From Candidatus Buchananbacteria bacterium CG10_big_fil_rev_8_21_14_0_10_33_19 (GTDB taxonomy: Bacteria; Patescibacteriota; Patescibacteriia; 2-01-FULL-39-33), in the NCBI GenBank assembly GCA_002773855.1, contig PEZY01000012.1:68255-132254 (forward strand): 64,000 nucleotides of DNA, read 5' to 3'. The position numbers and the translations under genes are program-made. The notes under the pieces were generated by a model. The model saw only the letters and a program-made list of their open reading frames with translations, searched no databases and was not told the DNA's origin. Shown here piece after piece: positions 5,043-58,140 of the stretch; positions within the stretch are counted from its first letter, which is position 1; each line of letters opens with the position of its first letter.

Positions 5043-5420
5043 ATGTCGAAGAAAAAAATTAAAGCTTTGCTGGTTGAAGATGACCAAATGATCGTACAGA
5101 TGTATAAAATCAGAATGGAAGATGAAGGTTGGGAGGTGTTTACTACTGATCGTGGTTCCGAGGCTATGAAGTTGGCTAAAGCTGAAAAACCAGATATTAT
5201 TTTGCTAGATATTATTTTACCAGAAGTTGATGGTTTCTCTATCTTAAAAGATTTAAGATCAGACACTACAACCAAAAAAATCCCAGTGATGATGCTAACC
5301 AATCTAGGACAAGAGTCCGATCAAAACAAAGGCCAGGAAATTGGTGTTGAAGGTTATCTAATAAAATCACAACATACACCAGGAGATGTAATTACTAAAA
5401 TTGAAAGTTTGCTTAAATAA
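5043..5420 (+). CDS. Single-domain response regulator (CheY-like receiver)
   Basis: KALLVEDD, ILLDIILPEVDG and conserved Lys region. Start taken at ATG 5043 (MSKKKIK) rather than the upstream ORF-track start. No kinase gene is adjacent. Confidence 0.7.
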   Translation: MSKKKIKALLVEDDQMIVQMYKIRMEDEGWEVFTTDRGSEAMKLAKAEKPDIILLDIILPEVDGFSILKDLRSDTTTKKIPVMMLTNLGQESDQNKGQEIGVEGYLIKSQHTPGDVITKIESLLK

Positions 5421-5436
5421 ATAAATTGTTAAAAAT

Positions 5437-5922
5437 ATGAGTTTACAATTAGAAAAAACATTGGTTATTTTAAAACCAGACGCTATGCAGAGAAATCTCT
5501 TAGGAGAAATTATTACTCGCTTTGAAAAAAAGGGTTTAAAGATAGTTGGTCTAAAAATGATTGAGCTAGAAGATATACTTTTAGACGATCATTATGCTCA
5601 CCACAAGGACAAACCATTTTTTGCCGGACTTAAAAATTATATGAAGAGTTCACCAGTAGTAGTCATTGCTTTAGAAGGCATCGAAGTAGTAGAGGCTGTT
5701 AGATTGCTTGTAGGCCCTACCAAGAGCCGAATTGCCGATGCTGGTAGTATTCGTGGTGATTACTCTATGAGTGGTCAAACCAATATTATTCATTCTTCTG
5801 ATTCATCAGAAAATGCCGCCGCCGAGATTAAAAGATTTTTTAAAGCTGAAGAATTGTTTAATTATAAAAAAATTGATTTTGAATTTTTATATGGTGATGA
5901 AGAAAGGGAAGAACTGGTTTAG
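5437..5922 (+). CDS. ndk: Nucleoside diphosphate kinase with C-terminal extension
   Basis: LVILKPDAMQRNLLGEIITRFEKKGLKIVGLKM and NIIHSSDS active-site region. About 30 extra C-terminal residues relative to canonical Ndk. Confidence 0.85.
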   Translation: MSLQLEKTLVILKPDAMQRNLLGEIITRFEKKGLKIVGLKMIELEDILLDDHYAHHKDKPFFAGLKNYMKSSPVVVIALEGIEVVEAVRLLVGPTKSRIADAGSIRGDYSMSGQTNIIHSSDSSENAAAEIKRFFKAEELFNYKKIDFEFLYGDEEREELV

Positions 5923-5945
5923 TAAAAAAAATATACAAAACAAAA

Positions 5946-5970
5946 ACACCCCAGAACGGGGTGTTTTTTT
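5946..5970. terminator. Bidirectional terminator shared by ndk and convergent rpmB
   Basis: acacccc-agaac-ggggtgt hairpin followed by a T run. The rpmB stop codon overlaps the T tract. Confidence 0.65.
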
Positions 5971-6145
5971 ATTTATCGTTTTTCTTTGCAGTTTTTAGAC
6001 AGCTAGTGCAAATTTTCATTTTCTTGCCATCCATCTTTTTGCTTTGAAGATTTATTTTCATTGTTCTTTTGGTTTTGACTTGCGAGTGACTGACATTGTT
6101 TCCAGTAGTAGTGCCTCGGCCGCAAACCTCACATACTTGAGCCAT
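5969..6145 (-). CDS. rpmB: 50S ribosomal protein L28 (58 aa; absent from the ORF track because under 60 aa)
   Basis: Manual minus-strand translation gives [58 protein letters not shown], matching the L28 family signature (CxxCGK...GNNVSHS...TKR...NLQ). Confidence 0.8.
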
Positions 6146-6258
6146 ATTATTATACTTTAAATTAGTTATGCATTAACTAAAATAGTGTAACATAATTGCG
6201 AAAATTGGTCAATTATGCTACTATAAGTAACAAGTTGAATTAATAAATACAAAATATT

Positions 6259-6888
6259 ATGCCGATAAATTGGCTTTTTTCCGAACCAATATTATTCATT
6301 TCCTGGATAGTGGCTATTTTAGTCACTTTGACTATTCATGAATTTTCCCATGCGGCTACTGCTAAATATTTTGGTGATAATACCGCCGAGGATATGGGCC
6401 GAGTTAGTCTAAATCCAATAGCTCATATTGACCCAATAGGCTTTGCGATGCTGTTATTTATTGGTTTTGGTTGGGCTAAGCCGGTACCAGTTAATCCGTA
6501 TAATCTGCGGAATCATCGACTGTCCAGCGCCTTAGTGTCACTGGCTGGGCCAGCTTCTAATTTAGTAGCCGCTATTGTTTTTAGTGTAATGTTGAGTATT
6601 TTGACACCAATTTTAGGTCCTCAGAATATGTTGGTTAATTTCTTATTTTTGCTAATTTTAGTCAATGTTATTTTAATGGTCTTTAATCTTATTCCAATCC
6701 CGCCATTAGATGGTTCAAAAGTGTTATTTAGCATTTTGCCTGATAAATATAATAATTTTAAAGAAAAATTCTCGATTAATGGACCATTTATCTTGATTTC
6801 CCTGGTTTTATTGGATAGTTTGCTAAATTTAAATATTTTTTCTAAGTTGTTTGGTTATGTTTTGGATATCTTAACTAGATTTTTATAA
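6259..6888 (+). CDS. Site-2 protease family zinc metalloprotease (peptidase M50)
   Basis: HEFSH zinc-binding motif in a TM helix plus NLIPIPPLDG (LDG) motif; polytopic. Confidence 0.7.
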   Translation: MPINWLFSEPILFISWIVAILVTLTIHEFSHAATAKYFGDNTAEDMGRVSLNPIAHIDPIGFAMLLFIGFGWAKPVPVNPYNLRNHRLSSALVSLAGPASNLVAAIVFSVMLSILTPILGPQNMLVNFLFLLILVNVILMVFNLIPIPPLDGSKVLFSILPDKYNNFKEKFSINGPFILISLVLLDSLLNLNIFSKLFGYVLDILTRFL

Positions 6889-6912
6889 TTGCTAGGTAAT
6901 ATTTTTTGCCAC

Positions 6913-6941
6913 TTGACTTATTAGCCAGAATTGTTTAAAAT
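6913..6941 (+). promoter_or_regulatory. Putative sigma70-type promoter of the rpsL-rpsG-fusA operon
   Basis: TTGACT, 17-nt spacer, TAAAAT, about 220 nt upstream of rpsL. Confidence 0.4.
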
Positions 6942-7160
6942 ATTCTCATTGAATCTGGTGCTGTAAAGATCAATAACTTCCGCATTCTTCATAAACAATT
7001 ATATACAAAATTAGAGTTCTATAATTGTGGTTCCCTAGTTTTTGGGAATTTTTTTAACTAATGAAGCCGGTGTTTATCGGCAACAATAAGATTGTCATCT
7101 CAAACAAAGGCGAAGCCAAAGTTGGGTGATCTTCATAAAACATATAATTTTAGAGTTATT

Positions 7161-7586
7161 ATGCCAACAATTAATCAATTATTAAGAAAAAGTCGGACTA
7201 GTATAAAGGCTAAGTCAAAGACTCCTGATTTGCAGATTACTTTGGACAGTTTACATCGCAAGAGAAAAATTGTTTCTAAAGGTAACCAGTTCAAAAGAGG
7301 TGTTTGTCTACAAGTTAGAACTACTACTCCTAAAAAACCAAACTCAGCTCTTAGAAAAATTGCTCGGGTGAGACTTTCTAATGGCCAAGAAGTTACTGCT
7401 TACATTCCAGGTGTGGGTCACAACTTACAAGAACACTCTATCGTGTTAGTTCGCGGTGGAAGAGTTAAAGATTTACCTGGTGTTAGATACCATGTTGTTC
7501 GTGGTGTTTACGATTCTGCCGGCGTTTCAGCTAGAAAACGTGGTCGAAGCAAATATGGCGCTAAGAAAGAAAAGGCAGCCAAATAA
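7161..7586 (+). CDS. rpsL: 30S ribosomal protein S12 (C-terminal basic extension)
   Basis: [10 protein letters not shown] start; KKPNSALRK and [11 protein letters not shown] motifs. The ORF-track N-terminus (7092) is an upstream extension without homology. Confidence 0.9.
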
Positions 7587-7613
7587 TTTAATAATTGAAA
7601 CTATTAAAATACT

Positions 7614-8084
7614 ATGAGAGGAAAACAAGCGCCAAAACGACCAATTGCTCCTGATACTAAGTTTAATCGAACTGATTTAGCTAAGTTTATCAATTACATT
7701 ATGCAACGCGGTAAAAAAACTATTGCTGAAGATATTGTTTATGAAATGATGCAAATTATTTCTGATAAAACTCAATTAGATCCAGTAGAAGTTTTTGAAT
7801 CAGCTATTAGAAATGTATCGCCAACAGTAGAAATTAAGGGTCGTCGAGTTGGTGGTGCCAACTATCAAGTACCGATGGCTGTTCGATCAGAGAGAAGCTT
7901 TACTTTAGCTTGTCGTTGGTTGATTACTGCCTCAGCAGCTAAAAAGGGCAAGAAAATGTCAGAAAAATTAGCTGAAGAATTTATTGCAGCTCATAACAAT
8001 GAAGGAATTGCTGTTAAAAAGAAACAAGATACCTATAAAATGGCCGAAGCCAATAGAGCTTTTGCTCACTTTGGACGAAATTAA
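7614..8084 (+). CDS. rpsG: 30S ribosomal protein S7
   Basis: Typical S7 sequence (YIMQRGKKTIAE...VEIKGRRVGGANYQVP). Confidence 0.9.
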   Translation: MRGKQAPKRPIAPDTKFNRTDLAKFINYIMQRGKKTIAEDIVYEMMQIISDKTQLDPVEVFESAIRNVSPTVEIKGRRVGGANYQVPMAVRSERSFTLACRWLITASAAKKGKKMSEKLAEEFIAAHNNEGIAVKKKQDTYKMAEANRAFAHFGRN

Positions 8085-8182
8085 TAAATAATTTAAGTCA
8101 GTTGGTGTTTCGTGGTGGTGGCTGGTAGGAATTTATAAAATAGACCACAGCCTACAACCTACGGACTACAACCTAAACAATT
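8085..8182 (+). repeat. Bipartite intergenic element, instance a (GTGG/GTAG-rich arm, TTTATAAAAT, CTAC-rich arm ending ACCTAA then ATG)
   Basis: taaataatttaagtcagttggtg...ggtagg aatttataaaat agaccacagcctacaacctacggactacaacctaaacaattATG; see findings. Confidence 0.5.
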
Positions 8183-10327
8183 ATGCCCAGAAAACAAACA
8201 TTAGACAAAATTCGTAATATTGGGATTATTGCCCATATTGATGCCGGAAAAACCACTGTTTCCGAAAGAATTTTATTTTACACCGGAAAAAAACATAAAA
8301 TTGGTGAAGTTCATGAAGGTGAAGCTACTATGGATTGGATGGAACAAGAACAGGAAAGAGGTATTACTATTACTTCAGCGGCGACTACTTGTTTTTGGCC
8401 CAATGCCGCTTGGTTAGGCGGTGGTGATATTCAAATTAATATTATCGATACCCCTGGTCACGTAGACTTTACCGCTGAAGTAGAAAGATCACTCCGCGTT
8501 TTAGACGGTGGTGTGATTGTTTTTGATGGTGTAGCCGGTGTCGAACCTCAATCAGAAACTGTGTGGCGCCAATCAGAAAAATATCATGTGCCAAAAATTG
8601 GTTTCATCAATAAGATGGACAGAATGGGCGCTGATTTTTACTATGATTTAAAAACTATCTACGACAGATTAACGCCTCATGCTCATCCTGTTCAATTACC
8701 AGTTGGTGCGGCTGATACCTTTACCGGTATTATCGATTTGTTTGATATGAAAGCTCGAATTTATTCTGATGATATGGGTACTAAATGGGAAGATACCGAA
8801 ATTCCAGATGATGAAAAAGACAGAGCGGCTGAGTATCGAGCAAAATTAGTTGAAGCGATTGTGGAAAATGATGAAGCTTTGATGGAAAAATATTTAGCTG
8901 GTGAAGAAATCCCAGTAGCGGATTTGAAAAAAACTTTAAGAGCAGCAGTTATTGCTAATAAAATTGTGCCAATTATGTGTGGTTCAGCTTTAAAGAACAA
9001 AGGTGTTCAATTTTTGTTAGATGCTGTTTCTGAATACTTACCATCACCAATGGATATCGATCCACCAATGGCTCATGATCCAGATGACATAACAAAAGAA
9101 ATTAAAGTAGAAGTAAAAGACGAGGCGCCATTAATGGGCTTGGCATTTAAAATTGCCACCGATCCATTTGTTGGTAAATTAGTATTCTATCGAGTTTATA
9201 GTGGCGTTCTACGATCTGGTTCTTATGTTGTTAATCAAACTACTGGTGACAAAGAAAGAATCGGCCGTATTTTAAGAATGCACGCCAACTCTCGGGAAGA
9301 AGTTCAAGAGGTTTATTCCGGTGAAATTGCCGCTATCGTTGGTCTAAGAAGTACCACTACTGGTGACACTATCTCTGATCCAACTGTTAAGGTGTTGTTA
9401 GAAAACATTACTTTCCCAGATCCAGTTATTGATATTGCGGTTGAACCAAAAACTAAAGCGGATCAAGAAAAAATGGGCTTAGCTTTGTCTAAATTAGCGG
9501 AAGAAGATCCAACTTTTAGAGTAAGAACTGATGAAGAAACTATGCAGACGATTATTTCTGGTATGGGTGAACTTCATTTGGATATTATTGTGGATCGGAT
9601 GCGACGTGAATTTAAAGTGGAAGCGAATATTGGTAAACCTCAAGTAGCTTATCGTGAAACTATTAAAGGTTCAGCTCAAGCTGAAGGTAAATATATTAAA
9701 CAATCTGGTGGTCGCGGACAATACGGCCATTGTTGGATTAAATTAGAACCGACCGAAAAAGAAGCAGAAGGTGTTCAAAAAGAGTATGTGTTTGTGGACG
9801 AAATTAAAGGTGGAGCTGTACCAAAAGAATTTATTAAACCAATTGATAAAGGTATTCGTGAAGCGATGGCTAGAGGTATTATCGCTGGCTTCCCACTGAT
9901 TAATGTTAAGGCTACATTGTATGACGGATCTTTCCATGATGTTGACTCTTCTGAAGGCGCCTTTAAAATTGCTGGTTCCATGGCTTTCCAAGATGCCGCT
10001 AAAAGATCACAACCAATTTTACTAGAACCAATTATGAAAGTAGAAGTGATTACCCCAGAACAGTTTATGGGTGACGCTATCGGCGACTTAAATTCTCGTC
10101 GAGCAATTATTGGTAATATGGAAGATAGAGGTATTGGGGCTTCTGCGGTCAAAGTGATTAGTGCTGAAGTACCATTATCTGAGATGTTTGGTTATATGAC
10201 TACACTTAGGTCTCTAACTCAAGGCCGAGCTTCTTATACTATGGAATTTTTGAAATATAACGAAGTGCCAAAGAATGTAGAGGAAAAGATTAAAGAAGAA
10301 AGAGGAACTGCGAAAACTAGAATCTAA
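8183..10327 (+). CDS. fusA: Elongation factor G
   Basis: [10 protein letters not shown]-domain, full-length 714 aa, canonical position after rpsG. Confidence 0.95.
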
Positions 10328-10342
10328 ACTTTATATAAAAAA

Positions 10343-10370
10343 ACACCTCGCCGGAGCGGGGTGTTTTTAT
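10343..10370 (+). terminator. Rho-independent terminator after fusA
   Basis: acacctcgc-cgga-gcggggtgt hairpin followed by TTTTT. Confidence 0.65.
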
Positions 10371-10436
10371 TTTTTATAGATGAACATACCATGGTGTGTT
10401 CATCTATAATTATTATCTTTGTTATCTTTCATATTA

Positions 10437-11062
10437 TTGTCATTGCGAGCAGATCCTTCGTTTCACTCAAGATAAACTCCACAATACTATATTTATATCA
10501 CTAAATCACATTGGTACTTTTTTAGAAAAAGTACCACAAAAATCGCGACAGTAAAAAATTTATAGTCGAAGCTAAAACTTCGTCCCGCTAATTTTCAAAA
10601 CTCGAAACTTTTTTATTTGTATTGGTGAACAAGTTTCTCAAACATTGAAAATTTTGGGCGTAGACGACGCCCAATCACTAGGACTCCCGTTTCATCTTCT
10701 CCTTAAATTTTTAAATTGTCGCAGATTTATGAAGATATTTATTTATAAAATATATAAATAAATTCTATCATATGAAAAATTAAGTAGAAAAACTATAATA
10801 AATTAAGCGATTGTGAGTTGTCTGAGAACAAATTTTCCGCATGCCTGTCTGCCGGTAGGCAGGTTTGAACCATTTTCGATATATCCAGATAAATGAAAAT
10901 GGTGAGTTCGGAAAATAGCGTAGAGTTATTATAGTTTTTCCTTAATTTTATCGTCGCTCGTAGTTTTTGGGTTACTTTTTGCTATCAAAAAGTGACGGGA
11001 AGAAAAAAAATGACGTTTGCGAGTTTTGCGGTACTTTTGCGGTCAAAAATGCCATAGAAATA
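10437..11062. repeat. Copy 1 of a structured intergenic repeat (conserved core about 10497..10737, plus a copy-specific internal segment)
   Basis: Near-identical core to 56775..57005 (cattggtacttttttagaaaaagtaccacaaaaatcgcgacagtaaaaaatttatagtcgaag...). Shared 5' end (attgtcatt-g/t-cga) and 3' end (acgtttgcgag-y-tttg...ggtac). No ORF over 60 aa. Confidence 0.6.
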
Positions 11063-11263
11063 TTGCTAAAGAAAATGAGATTCTCATGATGACAATAAAT
11101 TAAAAAACCTCTAAATTAACCCAAATTCGAACACTTCAACCCTAGTCTGAAGTGTTCAGTAAAAACCATAAAATTAAGCCAATTATCAGTTTTAGCTAAA
11201 AAACTTGATATATTCCCAGTTTTCCATTAGAATTAACCCATATCTTATAATTTTCCTAAAAAT

Positions 11264-11659
11264 ATGGAATCTATTCAAAAAGTGATCAATTTGATCAAAA
11301 AAACTGGGGATAAAGTCGTAATTTTAGACAAATCTGGTGATTTGGACTGCGTGATTATGAATATTAGTGATTATGAGAAATTAGTCTTCGGCAAGACCGA
11401 GGTTAAGGGCTTGACAGAAGACGAATTATTAGATAAAATAAATCGTGATATTGAAATCTGGAAAGACTCTCAGGAAAATGGACATTTGCCAATTGATCAA
11501 CATGATTTTTCGCAAGAATTAGACAAAAATAGTGAACCATTAATTGATTATAATTTTAATGAAATGCCGCCGGTGGCTAGTAATCAAGATTTTTCTCTAA
11601 ATTTAGATAATTCTGAAGAAGAAGACGAGGATCGCTATTACTTTGAACCAGTGGAATAA
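11264..11659 (+). CDS. Hypothetical acidic protein; N-terminal 45 aa faintly Phd/YefM-antitoxin-like
   Basis: MESIQKVINLIKKTGDKVVILDKSGDLDCVIMNISDYEKL resembles the Phd/YefM N-terminal fold pattern, followed by an acidic tail. No toxin partner is present. Weak call. Confidence 0.3.
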   Translation: MESIQKVINLIKKTGDKVVILDKSGDLDCVIMNISDYEKLVFGKTEVKGLTEDELLDKINRDIEIWKDSQENGHLPIDQHDFSQELDKNSEPLIDYNFNEMPPVASNQDFSLNLDNSEEEDEDRYYFEPVE

Positions 11660-11678
11660 CTGTAGATAATTAGACCCC

Positions 11679-11706
11679 TTGCAAAATTTATAGTTTTTGT
11701 TATAAT
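11679..11706 (+). promoter_or_regulatory. Putative sigma70-type promoter upstream of tuf (long leader)
   Basis: TTGCAA, 16-nt spacer, TATAAT, about 295 nt upstream of tuf. Confidence 0.3.
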
Positions 11707-12000
11707 AAGTAAACATTTTTGCTAAAAAGCAAAAAGTTTCGTTTTTAAACGATTTTTTAAATTTAAATAAATAAATAAGTGTTCGAGGCCTGGGTAAAAC
11801 TCCCAGTAACGGAACCATTGTTGAATGGTTTTTGATCATAGGTTTCCACAATTTTGAGGAAAATTTTATAAAAATTTTCGAAGCTTAATAAATTAAGTAG
11901 AGATAATTTAAGAAAATTTAACCAAAATTTGGAAGCTTTGGCAAAAGAATTATTCAACTATGGTTTCGATGGTGAGGGTCTCGAGAAGGAATAAACTACA

Positions 12001-13188
12001 ATGGCAGAAAATTTCGACAGAAGTAAGCCTCACGTAAATGTGGGCACAATCGGTCACGTTGACCATGGTAAGACTACTCTTACTGCGGCTATTTTGCAGG
12101 TGCTTAGCGCAAAAGGTTTAATTGCTCAAAACAAAACAGTTGACCAAATTGACGCTGCGCCAGAAGAAAGAGAAAGAGGTATTACTATTGCAACTGCTCA
12201 CGTTGAGTACCAAACAGAGAATAGACACTATGCTCATGTTGACTGTCCTGGTCACGCTGACTATATTAAGAACATGATCACTGGTGCTGCGCAAATGGAT
12301 GGTGCTATCTTGGTAGTTTCTGCTACAGACGGCCCAATGCCTCAGACCAAAGAACACATCTTGCTTTCAAATCAAGTTGGTGTTGGTCACATTGTGGTTT
12401 TCATTAACAAAGTAGATCAAGTTGATGATCCAGGATTAGTAGACCTAGTTGAAGAAGAAATCAGAGATCTATTAAAAAAATATGATTTTGATGGTGATAA
12501 CGTTCCTGTTATTAGAGGTTCAGCTTTGAAAGCTTTACAAAACCCAAGTGGTCCAGATGGCGAACCAATTATGAAATTAATGGAAGCTTTGGACACTTAT
12601 ATTCCACAACCAGAAAGAGCAGTTGATAAACCATTCTTGATGCCTATCGAAGATATTTTCTCTATCGAAGGTCGTGGTACTGTAGTAACTGGTAGAATTG
12701 AAAGAGGTATTGTTAAATTAAATGAAGAAGTTGAAATCGTTGGTCTAGCACCGACTCAAAAAACAGTTATTACTGGTATTGAAATGTTTAACAAGAATTT
12801 AGATGAAGGTAGAGCTGGTGATAATGCTGGTATTTTGTTAAGAGGTGTTAAGAAAGATGATGTTGAAAGAGGTCAAGTTTTAGCTAAGACTGGTTCTATT
12901 ACTCCTCATTCTGAGTTCGAAGCCGAAGTATATGTTTTGAGCAAAGATGAAGGTGGAAGACACAAGCCATTTTTCAAGGGTTATAAACCACAGTTCTACA
13001 TCAGAACTACTGATGTAACTGGTGAAATTGAATTACCAGAAGGTACTGAAATGGTTATGCCTGGTGATACTGTAAGCTTAAAGATTAAATTAGGCAAAGA
13101 AGTGGCTATGGAAGACAAAATGAAATTCGCTATTCGTGAAGGTGGTCACACTGTTGGCGCTGGATCTGTAACCAAGATTATCAAATAA
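12001..13188 (+). CDS. tuf: Elongation factor Tu
   Basis: [18 protein letters not shown] and NKVD motifs; 395 aa. Confidence 0.95.
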
Positions 13189-13270
13189 AACTATTTAGGT
13201 CAGGGGTTGAGGGCAGGCTCGCAAGAGCTTGCCACTCAGCATCCCGAAAATAGATTGAAATATAAAAAAC

Positions 13271-13615
13271 ATGGCAAGTACAAATAACGCAACCAAAGAA
13301 AACGATAAGACTCATCAAAGAATCAGGATCAAGATTAAAGCCTATGATCATAAGGTTATTGATAATTCTGCAAAGAAAATTATTGAGACTTGTGATAGAA
13401 ATGGCATTAAGGTTGCTGGCCCAGTACCACTGCCGACCGAAAAAAAGAAGTATACAGTTAATCGATCGACTTTCGTACATAAGGACAGCCGTGAACAATT
13501 CGAAATGAGAATCCATAAAAGATTATTGGATATCATCGATCCAGATGCTAAAACAGTAGATGCCTTGATGAACTTAAACCTTCCTGCGGGCGTGAACATT
13601 GAGATTAAAATGTAA
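13271..13615 (+). CDS. rpsJ: 30S ribosomal protein S10
   Basis: [14 protein letters not shown]...GPVPLPTE...RLLDIIDP. Confidence 0.9.
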
Positions 13616-13924
13616 AAACGGTTTGTAGCTAGTAACTCGTAACTTGTAATTTTTAAGGGAAAGATTATAGCTTACGGTTTACTGGTTGCAAATTATAAAA
13701 ACTGACAGTCATTTTCATAAATGGAAAAAGATCCCGAGTATATTTAGATAGTAGCTTCTAGGGGAAAACCTCCATCGGTGTAATTTTGATTGACAAGGAA
13801 AATAATAATATCTTAGTAAAAATTAGATTAATTAGGCAGGCTTATCATAAGCCCTTGCTATTTTGTAATCTGGTGTGTTAAGATATTGCCAGGTTTTTTT
13901 ATTTAAAAGAAAAAAATTAAAGTA

Positions 13925-14722
13925 ATGAAATTCATATTAGGTAAAAAATTAGAAATGACTCAAATCTTCCAAGAAAATGGAAGAGTTGTTCCTGTAACTG
14001 CAGTTTTGGCTGAGCCTAATATTGTTACCCAGATAAAAACTGAAGCTAAAGATAAGTATAGTGCTGTTCAAGTTGGATTTGGTTTCAATAAGAATCTTAA
14101 AAAACCACAAGTTGGTCACCTAAAAGGTTTAACTTCTGTTAGGACTTTGAAAGAATTTAGAGTAAATTCTAGTGAAGTGGAAAAAGTTAAAACTGGTGAT
14201 CAAATTACTGTTGCTGTTTTTGCGGCTAATGATGAAGTTAGAGTAACCGGTACTTCTAAAGGCCGTGGTTACCAGGGTGTGGTTAAAAGACATGGTTTTC
14301 ATGGTAGTCCAGCTTCTCATGGTCATAAAGATCAATTGAGAAAAGGTGGTTCTATTGGTGCTACTGATCCAGCAAGAGTATTTAAAGGTAAGAAAATGGC
14401 TGGTCGTATGGGTAATGATCAAATTAGTATTTCTGGTTTGAGTATAGTTGATATTGATAAAGAAAAAAATATTTTATATATTAAGGGCGCTGTGCCGGGA
14501 GCTAGAAATAGCTTATTGGTTATTAGTGGTCCTGGTGAAATGGATTTAACTGTAGCTAAACCAGAAATAAAAACAGAAGTTGTTGCAGAAAAAGTAGAAA
14601 GCACAGCTGTTGAGTCAGAAATTGTGGACACTAAAGTTGAAGAGACACCTGCTGTAGAAACTACAGAAGCTAAACCAGAAGTAGCTGAAGTTGTAGAAAC
14701 TAAAACTGAAGAAAATAAATAA
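13925..14722 (+). CDS. rplC: 50S ribosomal protein L3 with about 55-aa acidic/repetitive C-terminal extension
   Basis: VTGTSKGRGYQGVVKRHGFHG core, then a tail (VAEKVESTAVESEIVDTKVEETPAVETTEAKPEVAEVVETKTEENK). Confidence 0.9.
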   Translation: MKFILGKKLEMTQIFQENGRVVPVTAVLAEPNIVTQIKTEAKDKYSAVQVGFGFNKNLKKPQVGHLKGLTSVRTLKEFRVNSSEVEKVKTGDQITVAVFAANDEVRVTGTSKGRGYQGVVKRHGFHGSPASHGHKDQLRKGGSIGATDPARVFKGKKMAGRMGNDQISISGLSIVDIDKEKNILYIKGAVPGARNSLLVISGPGEMDLTVAKPEIKTEVVAEKVESTAVESEIVDTKVEETPAVETTEAKPEVAEVVETKTEENK

Positions 14723-14723
14723 T

Positions 14724-15431
14724 ATGAAGATATCAGTTTACAATTCAAGTGTTGAAAAGTCTAAAGACATTGAAATCAGTCAACGAATTTTTGGGGTTAA
14801 ACCAAAGACCGAGGTGATTCATCAAGTAGTTATCGCTCAACAAGCTAATGCTAGACAAGTTTTAGCTGATACCAAGGATAAAAGTGAAGTTCGTGGTGGT
14901 GGTAAAAAGCCATGGCGACAAAAAGGTACTGGTCGGGCTAGACACGGATCTATTCGTTCTCCATTGTGGAGAGGTGGTGGTGTCACTTTTGGTCCAACTA
15001 AGAATCGAAACTTTAGCAAAGGTATTAATAAAAAGCAGAGACAATTAGCCATGGCGATGTGCTTATCTAATAAGGTTTCTGAAAATTCATTCTTGGTTTT
15101 TGAAAACATTGAATTAGCTAGTGGTAAGACTAAAGATTTGAAGGATTGGATTGCTACTATTAAATCAAAAGTTGCTGATGTTAAAGATAATAAAAAGTTT
15201 TTATTAGTACTTGATAAAAGTGATGATAAGATAAATAGAGCGGTTAATAATTTAGATAAAGTTGATGTTATTTTGGCGGATAGTTTAAATTGTGTTGACA
15301 TTCTAAACCACGATACTATGCTAGCTTCTGAGAAAGCAGTTATCAAAATCGACCAACATTATAAACAGGTTAGTATAAAAAGAAGTCAGGCTACTGTAGC
15401 AAAAGAAAAAGCAGTTAAAGCTAAAAAATAA
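14724..15431 (+). CDS. rplD: 50S ribosomal protein L4
   Basis: RGGGKKPWRQKGTGRARHGS motif; start overlaps the rplC stop. Confidence 0.9.
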   Translation: MKISVYNSSVEKSKDIEISQRIFGVKPKTEVIHQVVIAQQANARQVLADTKDKSEVRGGGKKPWRQKGTGRARHGSIRSPLWRGGGVTFGPTKNRNFSKGINKKQRQLAMAMCLSNKVSENSFLVFENIELASGKTKDLKDWIATIKSKVADVKDNKKFLLVLDKSDDKINRAVNNLDKVDVILADSLNCVDILNHDTMLASEKAVIKIDQHYKQVSIKRSQATVAKEKAVKAKK

Positions 15432-15454
15432 AATACATATTTAGATAGAAAGTT

Positions 15455-15895
15455 ATGAGCATTTTCGATAAATTTACAAAGAAAACTGATGATCAGTCTG
15501 CAATCGCAGAGGAAGTGGTTTCTAAGCCAGAAACTGCTAAGGTTGATATTGCTAAAAAAGATGCTGATAATAAGAAAGAAGTTAAAAATGATGTTACAGT
15601 TAAAATTGTTAAAAAGACTTATGGTATTTTAGTTAAGCCACTTATTACCGAAAAGGCAGCTAATTTGGCTCAACTTAATCAATATGTATTTGCAGTAGCT
15701 AATAAGGCTAACAAAATTCAGATTTCTCAGGCTATTGAAGCTAGATATGGTATTAAACCAGTTAGCGTTAATGTATTAAATAATTCAGGTAAAACTGTAA
15801 GGCGTGGTCGAGATACTGGTCGAACTAAAGATTGGCGCAAGGCTATCGTTACTTTACCTGCTGGTAAAACTATTCAGATTCACGAAGGAGTATAA
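15455..15895 (+). CDS. rplW: 50S ribosomal protein L23 with about 50-aa N-terminal extension
   Basis: L23 core (ILVKPLITEKA...YVFAV...NKIQISQAIEARYG) preceded by a lysine/acidic extension. Confidence 0.85.
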   Translation: MSIFDKFTKKTDDQSAIAEEVVSKPETAKVDIAKKDADNKKEVKNDVTVKIVKKTYGILVKPLITEKAANLAQLNQYVFAVANKANKIQISQAIEARYGIKPVSVNVLNNSGKTVRRGRDTGRTKDWRKAIVTLPAGKTIQIHEGV

Positions 15896-15906
15896 ATTAA
15901 AAAAAT

Positions 15907-16758
15907 ATGGCAATAAAAGTCTACAAACCAACTACCCCAGCTAGACGTCACACTTCTGTATTAATGAGTGACGACGTTACCACCAGCAAACCTCATAAGA
16001 GGTTGATTGTTTCTGGTAAAAATATGGCTGGTCGTAATAACCAAGGCAAGATTACTGTTAGACATCAAGGTGGTGGTAGCAGAAAGAAAGTTAGAGTTAT
16101 TGATTATAAAAGAGACAAGTTTGATATTCCAGCAACTGTAGCTACTATTGAATATGATCCAAATCGAAATTCTAGAATTGCTTTACTTAATTATGCTGAT
16201 GGTGAAAAAAGATATATTATTGCTCCAGTTGATTTAAAAGTTGGTGATAAAATACTTAGCTCTCAGAAGTTGATTGAATTAAAAGTTGGTAATACTATGC
16301 CTCTTGAGGTTGTGCCTCCTGGTATGTTTGTATATAATGTGGAGATGACCCCAGGCAAAGGCGGCCAATTAGCTAGAAGTGCTGGTAATAATATTTCTTT
16401 GATGGGTATTGATAGCGGCAACGCTCAGCTTAAAATGCCTTCTGGTGAAGTAAGACTGGTATCAGAAAAATGTTTGGCCACCATTGGTTCGGTCAGCAAT
16501 CCAGATTTTAAAAATATTAGATGGGGCAAGGCTGGTAGATTAAGAAGAAAAGGTGTTAGACCCACTGTTCGTGGTAAAGCCATGAATCCAGTAGATCATC
16601 CTCATGGTGGTGGTGAAGGTAGTAACCCAATTGGTTTGAAAAATCCAAAGACTCCATGGGGTAAGCCAGCATTAGGTGTTAAAACCAGAAAACATGGAAA
16701 GAAATCAGACGATTTGATTATTTCCAGAAGAAATACTAAAAAGAGAAAGAAAAAATAA
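15907..16758 (+). CDS. rplB: 50S ribosomal protein L2
   Basis: Canonical L2 (HPHGGGEG, GRNNQG). Confidence 0.95.
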   Translation: MAIKVYKPTTPARRHTSVLMSDDVTTSKPHKRLIVSGKNMAGRNNQGKITVRHQGGGSRKKVRVIDYKRDKFDIPATVATIEYDPNRNSRIALLNYADGEKRYIIAPVDLKVGDKILSSQKLIELKVGNTMPLEVVPPGMFVYNVEMTPGKGGQLARSAGNNISLMGIDSGNAQLKMPSGEVRLVSEKCLATIGSVSNPDFKNIRWGKAGRLRRKGVRPTVRGKAMNPVDHPHGGGEGSNPIGLKNPKTPWGKPALGVKTRKHGKKSDDLIISRRNTKKRKKK

Positions 16759-17592: not shown

Positions 17593-17682
17593 TAAATAAG
17601 CAAGTAGTGAGTAGTGAGTAGTGAATAAAAGTAAAATATTTTTATTAACCACTCACTACCGACTACAAACTAATATATAGAT
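17593..17682 (+). repeat. Bipartite intergenic element, instance b
   Basis: taataaataagcaagtagtgagtagtgagtagtg aataaaagtaaaatatttttattaa ccactcactaccgactacaaactaatatatagatATG; gtagtgagtg / cactcactac arms can pair. Confidence 0.5.
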
Positions 17683-19289: not shown

Positions 19290-19379
19290 ATAATCTAAGT
19301 TTGGTAGTAAGTAGGGTACAGAATATTTCTAAGGTTGAATTAAGCTGTAATCTGCCTACTACAAACTAATATAAAATAT
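19290..19379 (+). repeat. Bipartite intergenic element, instance c
   Basis: taaataatctaagtttggtagtaagtagggtacag...ctgtaatctgcctactacaaactaatataaaatatATG. Confidence 0.5.
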
Positions 19380-22203: not shown

Positions 22204-22297
22204 ATAATTTAAGTAAGTAGGGAGTAGTAAGTAGTAAGTGTGGATTATAAAAATAATTCTACAATCTACCACCTACTGCCTACCACCTAATAATAAT
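22204..22297 (+). repeat. Bipartite intergenic element, instance d
   Basis: taaataatttaagtaagtagggagtagtaagtagtaagtgtgg attataaaaataatt ctacaatctaccacctactgcctaccacctaataataatATG. Confidence 0.5.
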
Positions 22298-22888: not shown

Positions 22889-22958
22889 TTAGTTAGATAG
22901 TAGTGAGTAGGAATTTAAAAAAAATTCTACAACCTACAACCTACAACCTAATAATAAT
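22889..22958 (+). repeat. Bipartite intergenic element, instance e (in the position where L30 is normally encoded)
   Basis: taattagttagatagtagtgagtagg aatttaaaaaaaatt ctacaacctacaacctacaacctaataataatATG. Confidence 0.5.
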
Positions 22959-23402: not shown

Positions 23403-23480
23403 ATTTTGCTCTCAGATTTAAAAAATAAATTTGATTTAAGTTTTAAATCTGCCTTATCTATAAACTAAACTATCTAAAAT

Positions 23481-24755: not shown

Positions 24756-24788
24756 AATTAAGATAAGAGCATTATAACTATTTTAAAA

Positions 24789-24810
24789 ACACGGTTCTTC
24801 CGTGTTTTTA
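24789..24810 (+). terminator. Rho-independent terminator after secY
   Basis: acacgg-ttctt-ccgtgt hairpin followed by TTTT; followed by an extended -10-like tgGTATAAT. Confidence 0.55.
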
Positions 24811-24858
24811 ATTTTTGTGGTATAATAAAGTTATCAATTACTAATCATAAAATAATTT

Positions 24859-25863
24859 ATGAAGAAAAAATTATTTATTTACTCTCTAGTATCTTTTGGA
24901 GCAATTATTGCTTCTTTAGCGCTAATTTCTCAATCTGCTTTAGCTGTTTATACTCCAGCCGAAGGAGATTTAGTTAAACTATCAAATGATTCCGCTATCT
25001 ATTATGTAAACGGTAGTGGTCAAAGAAGGCTTTTTGTTAATGCTCCAACATTTTGGTCTTGGCATAGCGGTACATGGAGTGATCAAAACATTAAAACAAT
25101 CACTCAACCTGATTTTGACGGGTTATCTGCAGGGGAAAACATGGCGATTAGGCCCGGAACAAATTTAATCAAATTCCAAAACAGCGATATTATGTACGCT
25201 GTTACTCCAGGTAATAAATTATGTAAGGCCACGGCTAATTATGGTGATAATTGGCGTGATAGATTAGTTACCATACAAAATAGTTTTGAAAGTAACTATC
25301 TCAATGATGATACTTGTAGAGTAGATGTTGATACTAAATTACCAAATGCTACTATTCTTCAATATAACGGTTCTAACCAAAAGTATTATATTGAAGATGG
25401 CGTTAAAAGACTTTTAACTGATAATGGCTTTAATCTTAATAAATTTCAAGATAAATTTGTGGTTAAAAATGTCCCTCAGTCGATGACCTTCAACAGTGAT
25501 GTCTCACGACCATTAGATGATAAAGAATTTTGGATTAATGATAATATTTTAGATTTAGAAGTAGGCGATTTTTTTTACCAATCATCTGATTCATTTAATA
25601 CCCAAGCTAATTTTATTGTGGAAATAACTCAGGAAAATGATCTAAGTCAAAACATTGGGATTGATTTATACATTGATGGTAGTTTAGTAAAGAGTATTGA
25701 TAGATTAGCTCATAAAGCAGAGCAATATTCGATTATCTGGGATAACCCAACTATTGGTGAACATGTTTGTAAGGTTGTAATCGATAGTAAAGATCAAGTA
25801 GATGAATCTAACGAAAATAATAATACTAAACAGTCTAATTGCATTGTTACCAAAGGGCAATAA
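24859..25863 (+). CDS. Secreted protein, paralog A (shared about 200-aa N-terminal domain, then C-terminal CARDB-like domain)
   Basis: Signal peptide. N-terminal domain about 75 percent identical by eye to the next gene. C-terminus ends ...VCKVVIDSKDQVDESNENNN, like CARDB domains. Confidence 0.55.
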   Translation: MKKKLFIYSLVSFGAIIASLALISQSALAVYTPAEGDLVKLSNDSAIYYVNGSGQRRLFVNAPTFWSWHSGTWSDQNIKTITQPDFDGLSAGENMAIRPGTNLIKFQNSDIMYAVTPGNKLCKATANYGDNWRDRLVTIQNSFESNYLNDDTCRVDVDTKLPNATILQYNGSNQKYYIEDGVKRLLTDNGFNLNKFQDKFVVKNVPQSMTFNSDVSRPLDDKEFWINDNILDLEVGDFFYQSSDSFNTQANFIVEITQENDLSQNIGIDLYIDGSLVKSIDRLAHKAEQYSIIWDNPTIGEHVCKVVIDSKDQVDESNENNNTKQSNCIVTKGQ

Positions 25864-25885: not shown

Positions 25886-27136
25886 ATGAAAAAAATATTG
25901 GTCATTGTTATATTATCAATCATTACTTCTTTAGTGCTAATTTCTCAATCTGCTTTAGCTGTTTATGCACCAACTGAAGGTGATTTAGTTAAATTGTCAT
26001 ATGATTCAGCTATTTATTATGTAAATAGTGCTGGCGAAAGACGCTTGTTTGTGAATGCCCCAACTTTTTGGTCTTGGTATAGTGGTTCTTGGAGTGACCA
26101 AAACATTAAAACCATTACCCAGTCCGAATTTGATGGATTGACTGTTGGTAAAAATATGGCAGTGCGACCAGGTACTAATTTGATTAAATTCCAAAATAGT
26201 AATAATTTATACGTCGTAATACCTGGTAATAAATTATGTAAAGCCACTACTGGTTATGGGGATAATTGGCGTGATAGACTAGTGACTATTCAAAATAGTT
26301 TTGAAAATAATTATACTGTTGATATTAATTGTCATGTTGACGCTGGTGATAAGCTACCAGATGGTACGGTTTTTAGAATTAGTAGTCCCGGACAGTTATT
26401 TTATGTGGAAAATGGTAAGGCTAGAATAATTCAAGACACAATTGGTGATGATGCTTTTATTAAAAATCGTTTTCAACATAAGTTTGTAGTCAAAAATGTG
26501 CCACAGTCAATGTTTGAGATAGATATTCAAAATACGGTAGCAAATAAAGAATTTTGGATTGATGATATTGACAATAATTCAGATATTTTTTCTGAAGCCT
26601 ATGGTAGTTTTAGTCTTTATTTACAGTGTTTAAAAAATTATGATAAAACTTGTTTGAGAGATTTGGCAGCTAAAGCGTCACTAGACGAATTTAATACTGA
26701 GTTAGATTCAGTAAATTTTCAACAATTAGCTGATTTTGAATATAGTGTTTTAAATGTTTATGAAAAATCAATGTTCGTTAATAATTGGTTTGATAATCAT
26801 CAATTAATAATGAATGCCGATGTTCAGAAAGACATTGCAGATGATCAGGTTACGTATAAAATGAGAAGTTTAAAATTCATAAAAGAAGATAATAAATGGA
26901 AATTAATTGGAGCTAGTGATATCATTATTGGCTGGTTTACTGATATAGAAGCTCAAGATAGAATTCGTGATACTGATAAAGACGGTTTGACTGATTTTAA
27001 TGAAAGATGTGAATCAGGATTTTCAAATTGTATAAAAACAGATCCACTGGATAGAGATAGTGATGATGATGGTTGGTGGGACGGTATTGAAAAATCTGTT
27101 CAAACTGATCCTAATAATGCTAATAGTAAACCGTAA
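25886..27136 (+). CDS. Secreted protein, paralog B (shared N-terminal domain, then C-terminal thrombospondin type-3-like Ca-binding repeats)
   Basis: Signal peptide; shared domain (FVNAPTFWSW...GNKLCKAT...DNWRDRLVTIQNSFE...FVVKNVPQSM); C-terminal DTDKDGLTDFNE...DPLDRDSDDDGWWDGIE repeats. Confidence 0.55.
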   Translation: MKKILVIVILSIITSLVLISQSALAVYAPTEGDLVKLSYDSAIYYVNSAGERRLFVNAPTFWSWYSGSWSDQNIKTITQSEFDGLTVGKNMAVRPGTNLIKFQNSNNLYVVIPGNKLCKATTGYGDNWRDRLVTIQNSFENNYTVDINCHVDAGDKLPDGTVFRISSPGQLFYVENGKARIIQDTIGDDAFIKNRFQHKFVVKNVPQSMFEIDIQNTVANKEFWIDDIDNNSDIFSEAYGSFSLYLQCLKNYDKTCLRDLAAKASLDEFNTELDSVNFQQLADFEYSVLNVYEKSMFVNNWFDNHQLIMNADVQKDIADDQVTYKMRSLKFIKEDNKWKLIGASDIIIGWFTDIEAQDRIRDTDKDGLTDFNERCESGFSNCIKTDPLDRDSDDDGWWDGIEKSVQTDPNNANSKP

Positions 27137-47516: not shown

Positions 47517-47595
47517 ATATTTGCAATAAAAATTACCGTAGGGCGTAGTAATAAGTAAGGGAGCCCCTAGATAATAAATAACTTTAAAAAACAAT

Positions 47596-50514: not shown

Positions 50515-50591
50515 TTTAAGTAAGTGGCTGGTAATAAGTAGAAATTTTAAAAAATAATTCTACAATCTACAACCTATAACCTAATAAAAGT
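50515..50591 (+). repeat. Bipartite intergenic element, instance f (outside the ribosomal cluster)
   Basis: taatttaagtaagtggctggtaataagtag aaattttaaaaaataatt ctacaatctacaacctataacctaataaaagtATG. Confidence 0.5.
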
Positions 50592-56653: not shown

Positions 56654-56658
56654 AATAA

Positions 56659-56681
56659 AAGGCGCGAAAGCGCTTTTTTTT
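56659..56681 (+). terminator. Rho-independent terminator after uppS
   Basis: ggcgc-gaaa-gcgc followed by TTTTTTTT. Confidence 0.6.
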
Positions 56682-56721
56682 ATTTTATTATATTTAGTTA
56701 TTGCCATGGGATTCCTTTGAT

Positions 56722-57177
56722 TGTCATTTCGACCGTAGCGAAGCGTAGTGAAGGAATTCTTTTTATTCTAAGTCATATTGGTACTTTTTTAGAAAAAGTA
56801 CCACAAAAATCGCGACAGTAAAAAATTTATAGTCGAAGATAAAACTTCGCTCCGCTAATTTTCAAAACTCAAAACTTTTTTATTTATAATAGTCGAAAGT
56901 TTTTCAAACATTGAAAATTTTGGGCATAGACAATGCCCAAACGCTAGAGCTCTCGTTTTATCTTCTTTTTAAATTTTTTAATTGTCGCAGTCTTATTAAG
57001 ATATTTATAATAATAAAATGCAAACATTAAAAAATATTGTGTCAATTTTATATAAAGCGAGCGCTAGAGACAATTATTCTGTCGCTATTTTGATTAATTG
57101 GCTCTAGTGAGTGTGTATAAAATTGGCCATGATTTTTTACGTTTGCGAGCTTTTGGTTACTTTTGGCGGTACAAAAG
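56722..57177. repeat. Copy 2 of the structured intergenic repeat (core about 56775..57005), directly abutting GC-rich island 1
   Basis: Core near-identical to copy 1. Three hairpins carry compensatory substitutions between the copies (gggcGt..aCgccc vs gggcAt..aTgccc; Gaaact..agtttC vs Aaaact..agtttT). Confidence 0.6.
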
Positions 57178-57195
57178 TAATAGAAGACTATTTTA

Positions 57196-57240
57196 AAATA
57201 AAAAAAGAAGCCGTCCGATCGCATGGTGCGATTGGACGGC
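57196..57240 (-). terminator. Rho-independent terminator of the minus-strand island operon
   Basis: 14-bp stem gccgtccgatcgca-tgg-tgcgattggacggc; on the minus strand it is followed by TTCTTTTTTTATTTT. Confidence 0.6.
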
Positions 57241-57251
57241 TTGGTTGGTGG

Positions 57252-57617: not shown

Positions 57618-57727
57618 GGCCTGTCTCCGTGCATGCTACAGTCGCACTGGTGAATGGACAGTCCGGTCTTGGGACAGGCGCAGTCACAGTGATCGGTTGG
57701 TAGCCCACACAATTTACATTTATCCAT
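57614..57727 (-). CDS. 37-aa Cys/His-rich micropeptide (island 1, gene 2)
   Basis: MDKCKLCGLPTDHCDCACPKTGLSIHQCDCSMHGDRP; AGGAGG 8 nt upstream of the ATG; start overlaps the gene-1 stop (ATGgaTAA). The longer ORF-track version (57614..57874) would overlap gene 1 by 155 nt. Confidence 0.5.
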   Translation of the reverse strand: MDKCKLCGLPTDHCDCACPKTGLSIHQCDCSMHGDRP

Positions 57728-58019: not shown

Positions 58020-58140
58020 GGCTATTTCTCCTTAGTTTTCCGCATTTCAGTTAAAAACGAACTATTACCATTATAGCATACTTTAGTATTATTGTCAAGT
58101 GTATTGAGCTTATTTTAGTATCAAGGTAGAATTAAGCCAT

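Follow-up and report, generated by a model that had tools for sequence, protein, structure and literature searches.

GTAG-heptad palindromes between ribosomal-protein genes of Candidatus Buchananbacteria: a probable family of insertional repeats

The window analysed here is a 64,000-nt stretch of a 33% GC contig from Candidatus Buchananbacteria (Parcubacteria, candidate phyla radiation (CPR)), with nearly all of its genes on the + strand. Six of its intergenic spacers share an element that we call the 'GTAG-heptad palindrome'. We propose that these spacers are copies of an insertional palindrome built from GTAG heptads, a small non-coding dispersed repeat of the broad kind that includes repetitive extragenic palindromes (REPs) and miniature transposable elements with inverted repeats (MITEs), and we put the probability of this reading at about 0.58. 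From comparison with related loci, metagenomes and viral contigs, we show that the copies form a family; that junctions gain, lose and swap them; that they were added directly past the stop codon into intercistronic spacers once 1-37 nt long; and that their context and phyletic spread are REP-like.

The element is a quasi-palindrome of 65-85 nt, present once per spacer. The stop codon of the upstream gene is followed by an A/T stretch resembling (T)AAATAATTTAAGTAAG; by a 5' arm of 3-5 tandem heptads G-TAG-T-R-A, devoid of C and with GTAG every 7 nt; by a conserved AT loop, TAGAAATTTWAAAAATAATTCTAC; and by a 3' arm of 3-5 inverted heptads CTAC-MAM, devoid of G and with CTAC every 7 nt, which closes in a half-unit CTAA (CCTAA or AACTAA). 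As the terminal CTAA mirrors the TTAG or TAAG beside the upstream stop codon, it represents the outer end of the palindrome; in the window copies, 6-10 nt of A/T lead from there to the ATG. When ten copies were aligned, of which the window contributed six, the relatives L006 and L007 three and the metagenome contig L118 one, they gave the consensus ...GTAGTGAGTAGTGAnTAGAAnTTTTAAAAATAATTCTACAAnCTACnCACTAC...AACTAATAAATAT, or, in its loop-inclusive form, ...TAAGTAAGTAGTGGGTAGTGAGTAGTGAnTAGAAnTTTTAAAAATAATTCTACAAnCTACnCACTACnnACTACnAACTAATAAATAT-ATG; because the consensus extends through the loop, the element is a discrete 65-85 nt unit and not a mere compositional pattern. A unit of the form G-TAG-TGA or G-TAG-TAA holds two in-frame stop codons, and owing to the period of 7 three units close all three frames, and by symmetry those of the other strand likewise.

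An earlier note, made from the letters of the window, had described the six spacers as sharing one architecture, and our analysis agrees: all six are exact intergenic gaps between the genes named. The identities of the genes at S7|EF-G and Rrf2(IscR-like)|SufC are supported by Pfam, and those at L22|S3, S17|L14, L18|S5 and S5|L15 by the Pfam annotation of an identical contig. The pattern GTAGNNNGTAG (GTAG-N3-GTAG) has 16 matches in the window, compared with 0.76 ± 0.98 expected from dinucleotide shuffles, and CTACNNNCTAM has 23, compared with 2.5 expected. Only two matches to either pattern lie outside the six spacers (at 13744 and 47538), those of GTAG-N3-GTAG being confined to the spacers and a partial site at 47538. 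An independent repeat finder recovered the copies as families D4, D5, D10 and D13, with identities of 76-89%. The readable portion of the genome amounts to 84 kb (the window plus 10 kb on each side), and the two 10-kb flanks hold no more copies.

Comparison with relatives supports insertion. The S3 protein encoded in the window shares 91% identity with its counterpart in a Buchananbacteria metagenome-assembled genome, and the 20 best loci come from that group or nearby. When 23 operon junctions were placed in 22 related loci by tblastn, the lengths of orthologous spacers proved bimodal across the 22 relatives, being mostly 1-37 nt or 64-126 nt; the range of 4-25 nt that had been given for element-free junctions of this operon is thus to be widened to 1-37 nt. 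From L3|L4 to S5|L15, the window has 4 enlarged junctions out of 18 (plus S7|EF-G), L005 has 5 out of 18, L006, whose contig ends early, 7 out of 13, L007 12 out of 18, and more distant Buchananbacteria have 0-4. In L007 (MHIM01000006.1, Buchananbacteria RIFCSPLOWO2_01_FULL_39_33, locus 5300-16400), the enlarged junctions are 80-126 nt long and at least 8 of the 12 are recognisable inverted arrays, belonging to at least four array families; the stop codon of L24 is provided by the element, and L3|L4 carries a 3' arm only (CTAC x4).

Arrays of any unit were sought in the relatives with a periodic 4-mer screen, a strict tandem-array detector having missed the window copies and AT-only words having swamped a 5-mer screen. 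At least four unit families of one architecture coexist in the clade, several of them within single genomes: GTAGTGA / TCACTAC (window, L006, L007, L118); TTAGCTT / AAGCTAA, with a period of 8 (L005, L006, L007, L015); ATAAAGTT / AACTTTAT (L007, L013, L014); and GTAACTC / TTACGGA (window and L005); others include CCACGAAT in L018 and GGAATTT in L026. The window member of the GTAACTC family (13632..13689, + strand) has the same architecture, reading GTAACTC/GTAACTT/GTAATTT ... CTTACGG/TTTACTG/GTTGC right after the S10 stop codon. Its sister copy fills L3|L4 of L005 (3643-3730), a junction that measures 88 nt there and 1 nt in the window and in L006.

Single junctions differ in their occupants from one genome to the next. 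At S3|L16, the window has no element, L005 and L006 each have an AGCT-type copy, and L007 has a GTAG-type one. At L18|S5, a GTAG-type copy is found in the window and an AGCT-type copy in L007, whereas the 14-nt spacer of L005 is empty. The L18|S5 copy of L007 is a near-duplicate of the L22|S3 copy of the same genome, and the unusual loop that the two have in common points to a recent within-genome duplication. Such gain, loss and replacement of discrete units at orthologous junctions is insertional behaviour. The suggestion that the element was inserted or proliferated is therefore borne out by the bimodal spacers, by the swapping of families at one junction and by within-genome copies that are alike even in the loop. 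Two traits of MITEs are likewise present: presence or absence at orthologous sites together with near-identical paralogues (the bimodal spacers, the L007 pair and the empty L18|S5 of L005), and terminal inverted repeats around a small non-coding body, here the inverted arrays with TTAG/TAAG ... CTAA as their outermost units. The spacer at L15|SecY in the window (23403-23480) is of another kind: it is 78 nt long and contains a simple AT hairpin, CAGATTTAAAA...TTTTAAATCTG, ending in AAACTAAACTATCTAAAAT-ATG, and is not array-type; the relatives L013, L014 and L021 have AAAGTT/AACTTT arrays at this junction.

The motif recurs outside the window, in L006, L007 and L118 and more widely in metagenomes, the opposite of the lack of recurrence that the earlier note would have taken as a refutation. 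A scan with the pattern GTAGTRAGTAG-N(10-40)-CTACNNNCTACNNNCTA matched at least 119 metagenome contigs, where by our estimate chance would give about 30. Among the matches listed, to which the figures in this paragraph refer, the periodic arrays run far past the search pattern and the contigs range from 32 to 68% GC. Arms typically comprise 4-5 units; because both arms fall within this narrow range, their unit numbers are uncorrelated (rho = 0.04). Units, among them TGAGTAG, TTTGTAG, TAAGTAG and TTGGTAG, follow no positional order within the mixture, and loops are 1 to 40 nt long. Of 125 elements, 52 have co-directional neighbouring genes, 13 convergent ones and 2 divergent ones, while 2 fall within open reading frames (ORFs). 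In 25 of 64 co-directional cases (L085-L203), a TAG belonging to the array ends the upstream ORF (offsets -3, -10 and -17); arrays can thus supply or replace stop codons, with the result that predicted C-termini shift. Across the 64 co-directional copies, 2-125 nt separate the last unit from the ATG that follows.

The orientation GTAG...CTAC outnumbers CTAC...GTAG by 128 to 0 in the metagenome set, which was preselected for one arrangement and so offers no fair comparison, and array-type matches in two viral scans stand at 3 to 0 for the same orientation, numbers too small to build on. IMG/VR contigs of 63% GC carry GTAG-heptad palindromes at 6386-6430 in L209 and at 5999-6029 and 8057-8095 in L210, one of which lies just upstream of a Shine-Dalgarno (SD) sequence and an ATG. 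A set of 58 ribosomal-protein operons of non-Buchananbacteria, taken from a genome collection, contained just three inverted arrays, whatever the unit, which indicates that dense colonisation is specific to the Buchananbacteria clade. Near multi-copy metagenome loci, inspection by eye revealed only housekeeping genes (MraZ/RsmH, GyrA, pilus genes, S13/S11) as potential partners, and no Y1-transposase-like ORF was noticed in the same inspection.

The window copies, all on the + strand and all between co-directional genes, range from regular to degenerate. Copy d (22204..22297, the L18|S5 spacer; 96.6 bits with model R1) consists of a 5' tail (22204-22216), a 5' arm (22217-22243, GTAG at 22217, 22224 and 22231), a loop (22244-22258), a 3' arm (22259-22290, CTAC x4 + CTAA) and an A/T tail (22291-22297) followed by the ATG. 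Copy b (17593..17682, the L22|S3 spacer; 80.8 bits) has three GTAGTGA units (17604, 17611, 17618) and an AT loop, then CCACTCACTAC-CGA-CTAC-AAA-CTAA, and forms the strongest hairpin of the six (-28 kcal/mol). Copy c (19290..19379, the S17|L14 spacer; 52.7 bits) is degenerate and reads GGTAGTAAGTAGGGTACAG ... CTGTAATCTGCCTACTACAAACTAA. In copy a (8085..8182, the S7|EF-G spacer; 67 bits), a degenerate 5' arm (GTTGGTG/CGTGGTG/GTGGCTG/GTAGG, with TAG turned into TGG) precedes the loop GAATTTATAAAATAGA and a 3' arm with CTAC at 8152, 8159 and 8166 and CTAA at 8173. Copy e (22889..22958, the S5|L15 spacer; 64.4 bits) reads TTAG-TTAGATAGTAGTGAGTAGG, loop AATTTAAAAAAAATT, CTACAAC x3 + CTAA, is 89% identical to the 3' arm of copy d, and is flanked by TAA on each side (stop codon TAA|TTAG ... 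CTAA|TAA). Copy f (50515..50591, the Rrf2(IscR-like)|SufC spacer; 67.5 bits), the sole window copy outside the ribosomal-protein cluster, combines a decayed 5' arm (GTGG, CTGG, GTAA, GTAG) with the 3' arm CTACAAT-CTACAAC-CTATAAC-CTAA. A seventh site, described earlier as a 5' arm alone (47530..47570, + strand; GTAGGGCGTAGTAATAAGTAAGGGAG), does contain one GTAG-N3-GTAG (GTAGGGCGTAG); it has no CTAC arm and no hairpin (fold z = +1.1), does not match model R1 at E ≤ 1, and may be a decayed half-copy or a product of chance.

As RNA, the element is predicted to fold into an interrupted hairpin, in which GUAG/CUAC helices of 4-5 bp are separated by 3-nt internal loops. The window copies, whose arms the earlier note reported as partly complementary, are uneven in hairpin strength: b, c and d fold well (z = -7.1, -4.1 and -3.65), whereas a, e and f do so weakly (z = -1.35, -1.9 and +0.2), their spacer triplets (TGA vs. 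AAC) being unpaired. In 25 Buchananbacteria spacers, the 5' base of the hairpin lies 0-16 nt past the stop codon and an unpaired A/U tail of 5-21 nt precedes the AUG; the 5' and 3' tails sum to about 20 nt, close to the length of an empty junction.

The palindromy itself is real: mirrored variable bases form Watson-Crick pairs in 715 of 1338 cases (53%), compared with 575 ± 15 (43% ± 1%) after shuffling. Selection of the hairpin in the sense transcript was considered and dropped, as neither fold energies nor mismatch counts show a bias: sense and antisense energies are equal in the 25 Buchananbacteria spacers (p = 0.94), and G·U is not above A·C at mirrored positions when elements are oriented by gene direction (37 vs. 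55). RNAalifold on ten copies returned a covariation term of -0.13 kcal/mol, a value made uninformative by the fact that the pairs are mostly invariant GTAG/CTAC cores. In co-directional copies, purine·purine mismatches exceed pyrimidine·pyrimidine mismatches (155 vs. 71; 36 vs. 13 elements, sign test p = 0.0014), whereas convergent copies are symmetric (15 vs. 15) and better paired (Watson-Crick 68%, compared with 51% in co-directional copies). With no signature of the sense RNA, and with convergent copies both symmetric and better paired, the palindrome seems to stem from the way in which the element is made; within mRNAs, it looks eroded toward a purine/A-rich sense strand, not preserved. 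This erosion in operons suggests that the hairpin is tolerated, perhaps as a mildly useful 3' stabiliser, rather than required.

Copying of such an insertional palindrome might proceed by one of two routes: a trans-acting enzyme may recognise reiterated GTAG, as REP-associated tyrosine transposases (RAYTs) do with GTAG-tagged REPs, or replication slippage, combined with intra-strand template switching and short-homology conversion, may suffice. Copies would then be read through within the operon mRNA, where they could fold as an interrupted hairpin, and only those leaving a short single-stranded A/U tail before the AUG would survive. Such a filter, together with a short original spacer, would produce the apparent fixation of CTAA at 6-10 nt from the start. 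The earlier note had taken this position to be fixed as such; the spacing is seen in the window, yet it dissolves in the 2-125 nt range of the metagenome copies given above.

Several observations weigh against an insertional REP/MITE-like origin. Neither a transposase nor a target-site duplication nor an excision footprint has been demonstrated. TAA occurs at both ends in about half of the copies, which is weak evidence in an AT-rich, stop-codon context: on both sides it is found in copy e and in the S3|L16 copy of L007, where the left TAA is the stop codon, and it follows the terminal CTAA in 5 of the 10 aligned copies. The ribosomal-protein cluster has copies at 5 of about 24 junctions, compared with 1 of about 75 elsewhere in the 84 kb (Fisher p = 0.003), and about 10 of the at least 119 metagenome matches belong to ribosomal-protein operons from other lineages; such concentration in the cluster is not expected of a purely selfish element, and a function in highly expressed, translationally coupled operons might. 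All window copies have the same polarity relative to genes according to model R1, but almost all window genes lie on one strand. The S3|L16 copies of L005 and L006 are 82% identical, so that some copies are old, retained across species and not purged. Lastly, four further contigs of the species are 99.97-100% identical to the window, and no strain-level presence/absence polymorphism could be observed among them.

The alternative readings concern mainly what the spacers do in the RNA or DNA of their host. Functional intercistronic RNA hairpins of whatever origin, serving RNase III-type processing, stabilisation of the upstream 3' end or translational coupling, offer a possible but unlikely account, and one that is compatible with the REP/MITE-like reading, the two not being mutually exclusive; in the coupling version, a terminating ribosome would melt the basal GUAG/CUAC helix and free the outer 3'-arm units at -6 to -20 of the AUG. 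Three window copies and most copies of relatives out-fold their shuffles (z = -3.65 to -7.1; -25 to -42 kcal/mol), the unpaired A/U tail of 5-21 nt is always present before the AUG, and the 5' base lies within the ribosome footprint of the stop codon, a geometry that fits processing and re-initiation alike. The enrichment in ribosomal-protein operons (p = 0.003, and about 10 metagenome matches among those listed) and the retention of some orthologous copies also speak for a working hairpin, and E. coli REPs within about 15 nt of a stop codon reportedly affect translation of the upstream gene (a finding ascribed to Liang, Rudd and Deutscher in 2015). However, the sense strand bears no signature (equal stabilities, G·U not above A·C, covariation about 0), 3 of the 6 window copies barely fold, pairing in operon contexts is eroded and not kept, and junctions of 1-30 nt suffice for most relatives. 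Binding of an oligomeric protein to the heptad arrays, either on duplex DNA (one dimer per heptad, like the operators of the ribbon-helix-helix proteins omega and ParG or the 'global regulator sites' of IHF/HU type that have been proposed for Geobacter) or on RNA (a HutP-like ring protein reading UAG-N4 repeats), would explain why the GTAG core and the period of 7 are conserved while neighbouring bases vary, why arms keep 4-5 units across taxa of 32-68% GC (among the matches listed), and why window triplets are consistent within an arm and not complementary between arms (TGA vs. AAC), an indication that pairing is not the sole constraint; the paired tandem-repeat sites of G. metallireducens have been so interpreted (PMC2700814). 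We nevertheless consider such binding quite improbable: at least four unrelated unit sequences per genome would demand as many proteins, the loop varies from 1 to 40 nt among the matches listed, and roadblock-type DNA binding in the most highly expressed operon is implausible. No candidate protein emerged either, since Pfam found nothing relevant beside the elements and inspection by eye showed no obvious partner ORF near multi-copy loci.

That the G-free, C/A-rich 3' arm ending in CTAA might be a translation-initiation enhancer or standby site of an SD-less organism, with the 5' arm as its regulatory mask, appears very improbable, even though the setting is suggestive. An SD-like motif (GGAG, GAGG or AGGA at -20..-4) precedes only 6 of 71 window genes, and the leaders of the window genes are A/T-rich; 3' arms in operon contexts drift to A-rich, unpaired sequence; half-elements with the 3' arm alone lie upstream of starts (L007 L3|L4, L011, L018); and TAACTGA repeats placed right before starts without a ribosome-binding site (RBS) have been proposed as translational regulator sites (PMC4679880). 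CTAA is found at -25..-5 of 13 of 65 element-free genes, compared with 6.7 expected (P about 0.02), a weak enrichment that is confounded by upstream TAA stop codons. On the other hand, elements also occur between convergent genes (13 of 125 among the matches listed) and before a normal SD, the gap that separates them from the ATG varies between taxa, other unit families share no 3'-arm sequence beyond CTAA, and most ribosomal-protein genes of this and related genomes do without the element. The lack of an SD, which the earlier note had remarked on at the genes behind the element, reflects a genome-wide scarcity, and in L085 and L210, from SD-using organisms, the same element stands upstream of an ordinary GGAGG. 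The element is probably not a start signal for protein synthesis. The AT-rich loops and the hairpin form might also recall internal promoters (in the TATAAAAT loop, as once proposed) or intrinsic terminators and attenuators. We regard both as extremely improbable: no sigma-70-like + strand site was found in any of the six spacers, and the regional total of 69 sites is no enrichment over the 64.1 ± 8.9 expected; no + strand terminator-like site and no GC-rich stem with a T-run occurs in any element, the 3' flank being CTAATAATAAT, though the same genome uses canonical terminators at 10339-10368 and 24783-24811. Rfam gave no match at gathering scores, and a cut-off of E ≤ 1 added nothing but sub-threshold look-alikes of miRNA and Y-RNA on copy b; the element also does not behave as a ribosomal-protein autoregulatory leader, as the junctions of most relatives are without it. 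The S5|L15 copy, which takes the usual place of rpmD (L30), is not a remnant of that gene, since L30-less relatives have S5|L15 junctions down to -4 to 33 nt; CPR bacteria have lost L30 in general (PMC9297842).

A broader and rather unlikely proposal would treat GTAG-heptad palindromes, together with sister families on other 7-9 nt units, as a distinct, unnamed class of prokaryotic mobile 'gene-end cassettes'. Taken as one claim, it would have these cassettes be symmetric, presenting all-frame stops to ribosomes from either side and then a hairpin; spread over phyla and phages by GTAG-reading machinery; settle by preference at junctions in operons with high expression and translational coupling; have remade two-thirds of the junctions of the ribosomal-protein operon in some CPR bacteria; and form part of SD-less cistron termination and restart.

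Few gene arrays of bacteria are as compact and conserved as ribosomal-protein operons, and CPR genomes are highly streamlined; palindromic insertions of 65-125 nt that belong to several families, turn over rapidly and occupy 4 to 12 of 18 junctions were therefore unexpected, and small repeats are evidently able to thrive in CPR genomes. As natural insertions between coupled cistrons of a nearly SD-free organism, the elements offer a ready-made test of SD-less termination and re-initiation. An architecture noted in Geobacter and never explained recurs in GTAG-heptad form in contigs of 32-68% GC (among the matches listed) and in phages, and a general, unnamed repeat class may be involved. In practice, these spacers can mislead gene callers, given that the upstream ORF ends in the array in 25 of 64 cases among the matches listed, and they could serve as strain markers.

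Other features of the window were observed alongside. The spacer between rpsJ (S10) and rplC (L3), 309 nt long (13616-13924), contains a conserved structured leader, ATGGAAAAAGATCC...GGGGAAAACCTCCAT, and then a terminator-like hairpin (CTGG...CCAGG + T-run); its motifs at 13721-13734, 13761-13775 and 13870-13900 recur in L008-L023 without an Rfam match, and the leader resembles an attenuator of the S10 operon (L4-type) that stands behind S10 instead of in front of it. Two long gene-poor gaps (10328-11263 and 56654-58140) contain copies of a dispersed repeat about 240 nt long (10501-10742 and 56768-57008; 85% identity), part of which is also found upstream of the orthologous 131-aa gene in L005. 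An exact 49-nt duplication (43283-43331 and 43491-43539, 208 nt apart) comprises the 3' end of tRNA-Trp and a terminator-like hairpin. Right after secY, two adjacent paralogous genes (24859-25863 and 25886-27136), the first with a CARDB domain, share a 300-nt stretch at 78-80% identity and constitute an unusual insertion between secY and adk.

No account of such elements from CPR genomes turned up in our search of the literature, in which heptad words such as GTAGTGA matched primers only. The nearest relatives by context are the GTAG-tagged REPs, their composites known as bacterial interspersed mosaic elements (BIMEs), and the RAYT (TnpA-REP) transposases (Di Nocera et al. 2013, PMC3733652; Nunvar et al. 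2010, PMC2817692). Shared features are the GTAG/CTAC tetranucleotide, inverted pairs able to form larger hairpins, several families per genome, turnover between species, wide phyletic spread, and a distribution over unidirectional and convergent sites that rarely includes divergent or intragenic ones (52/13/2/2 of 125 among the matches listed). However, a REP is a 20-40 bp stem-loop (6-13 bp stem) with one terminal GTAG, whereas here GTAG recurs every 7 nt; and because the 5' arm lacks C and the 3' arm lacks G, a single arm cannot fold, so that, unlike in a REP, the hairpin needs both arms. No RAYT gene was seen here on inspection of partner genes by eye, and 6 copies in 84 kb compare with tens to hundreds of REPs per genome. 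Bacterial MITEs such as Correia/CREE, RUP and Nezha (reviewed in PMC2229807 and PMC10969869) are likewise small, non-coding and hairpin-forming, have terminal inverted repeats, are co-transcribed with their neighbours, and occur as near-identical dispersed copies that are present or absent between relatives. The inverted repeats of the GTAG-heptad palindromes differ from these in being heptad arrays and not a unique terminal repeat, and their size is at the very small end of the MITE range. The omega repressor of pSM19035 binds direct and inverted runs of TCAC-containing heptad operators (WATCACW), and HutP recognises UAG-N4-UAG-N4-UAG. The former shares the period of 7 and resembles the ACTCACT of the elements, and the latter is exactly the 5'-arm pattern; both likenesses are resemblances only, and both proteins are known binders of single regulatory sites, not of dispersed repeats.

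A parallel in architecture is provided by the paired sites of tandem repeats in Geobacter metallireducens, termed 'global regulator sites' (Aklujkar et al. 2009, PMC2700814), whose classes 1-3 consist of 4x GTTGCTYN, 3x TCTCCGTS[Y] and 5x MTYCTGA on opposite strands and which were interpreted, without a test, as sites of an IHF/HU-type protein. As in the elements described here, arrays of 3-5 tandem 7-9 nt units are paired on opposite strands at variable distance, an agreement that concerns architecture only; several classes exist per genome, and sites are intergenic, including the intercistronic proB|proA, and absent from the sister species. The unit sequences are unrelated, the host belongs to another phylum and has high GC, and no link to ribosomal-protein operons has been reported. 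Direct repeats of the heptamer TAACTGA in marine Beggiatoaceae, cyanobacteria and Bacteroidetes (MacGregor 2015, PMC4679880) also consist of tandem 7-nt units with stop codons a few nt before RBS-less start codons. They are over-represented in translation genes, including fusA and rplC of ribosomal-protein operons, and their patchy cross-phylum distribution suggests horizontal spread; they differ in being direct arrays (1 of 170 inverted) with no loop or partner arm, whereas here inverted pairs surround a conserved loop within a discrete unit of 65-85 nt. Long heptanucleotide simple repeats and the short tandemly repeated repetitive (STRR) sequences of cyanobacteria are said to have been described by Mrazek in 2007 and Mazel in 1990. 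The heptads of the present elements are likewise tandem within arms, as slippage of tandem repeats would produce them; the narrow range of 4-5 units (among the matches listed) and the conserved loops fit a discrete element better.

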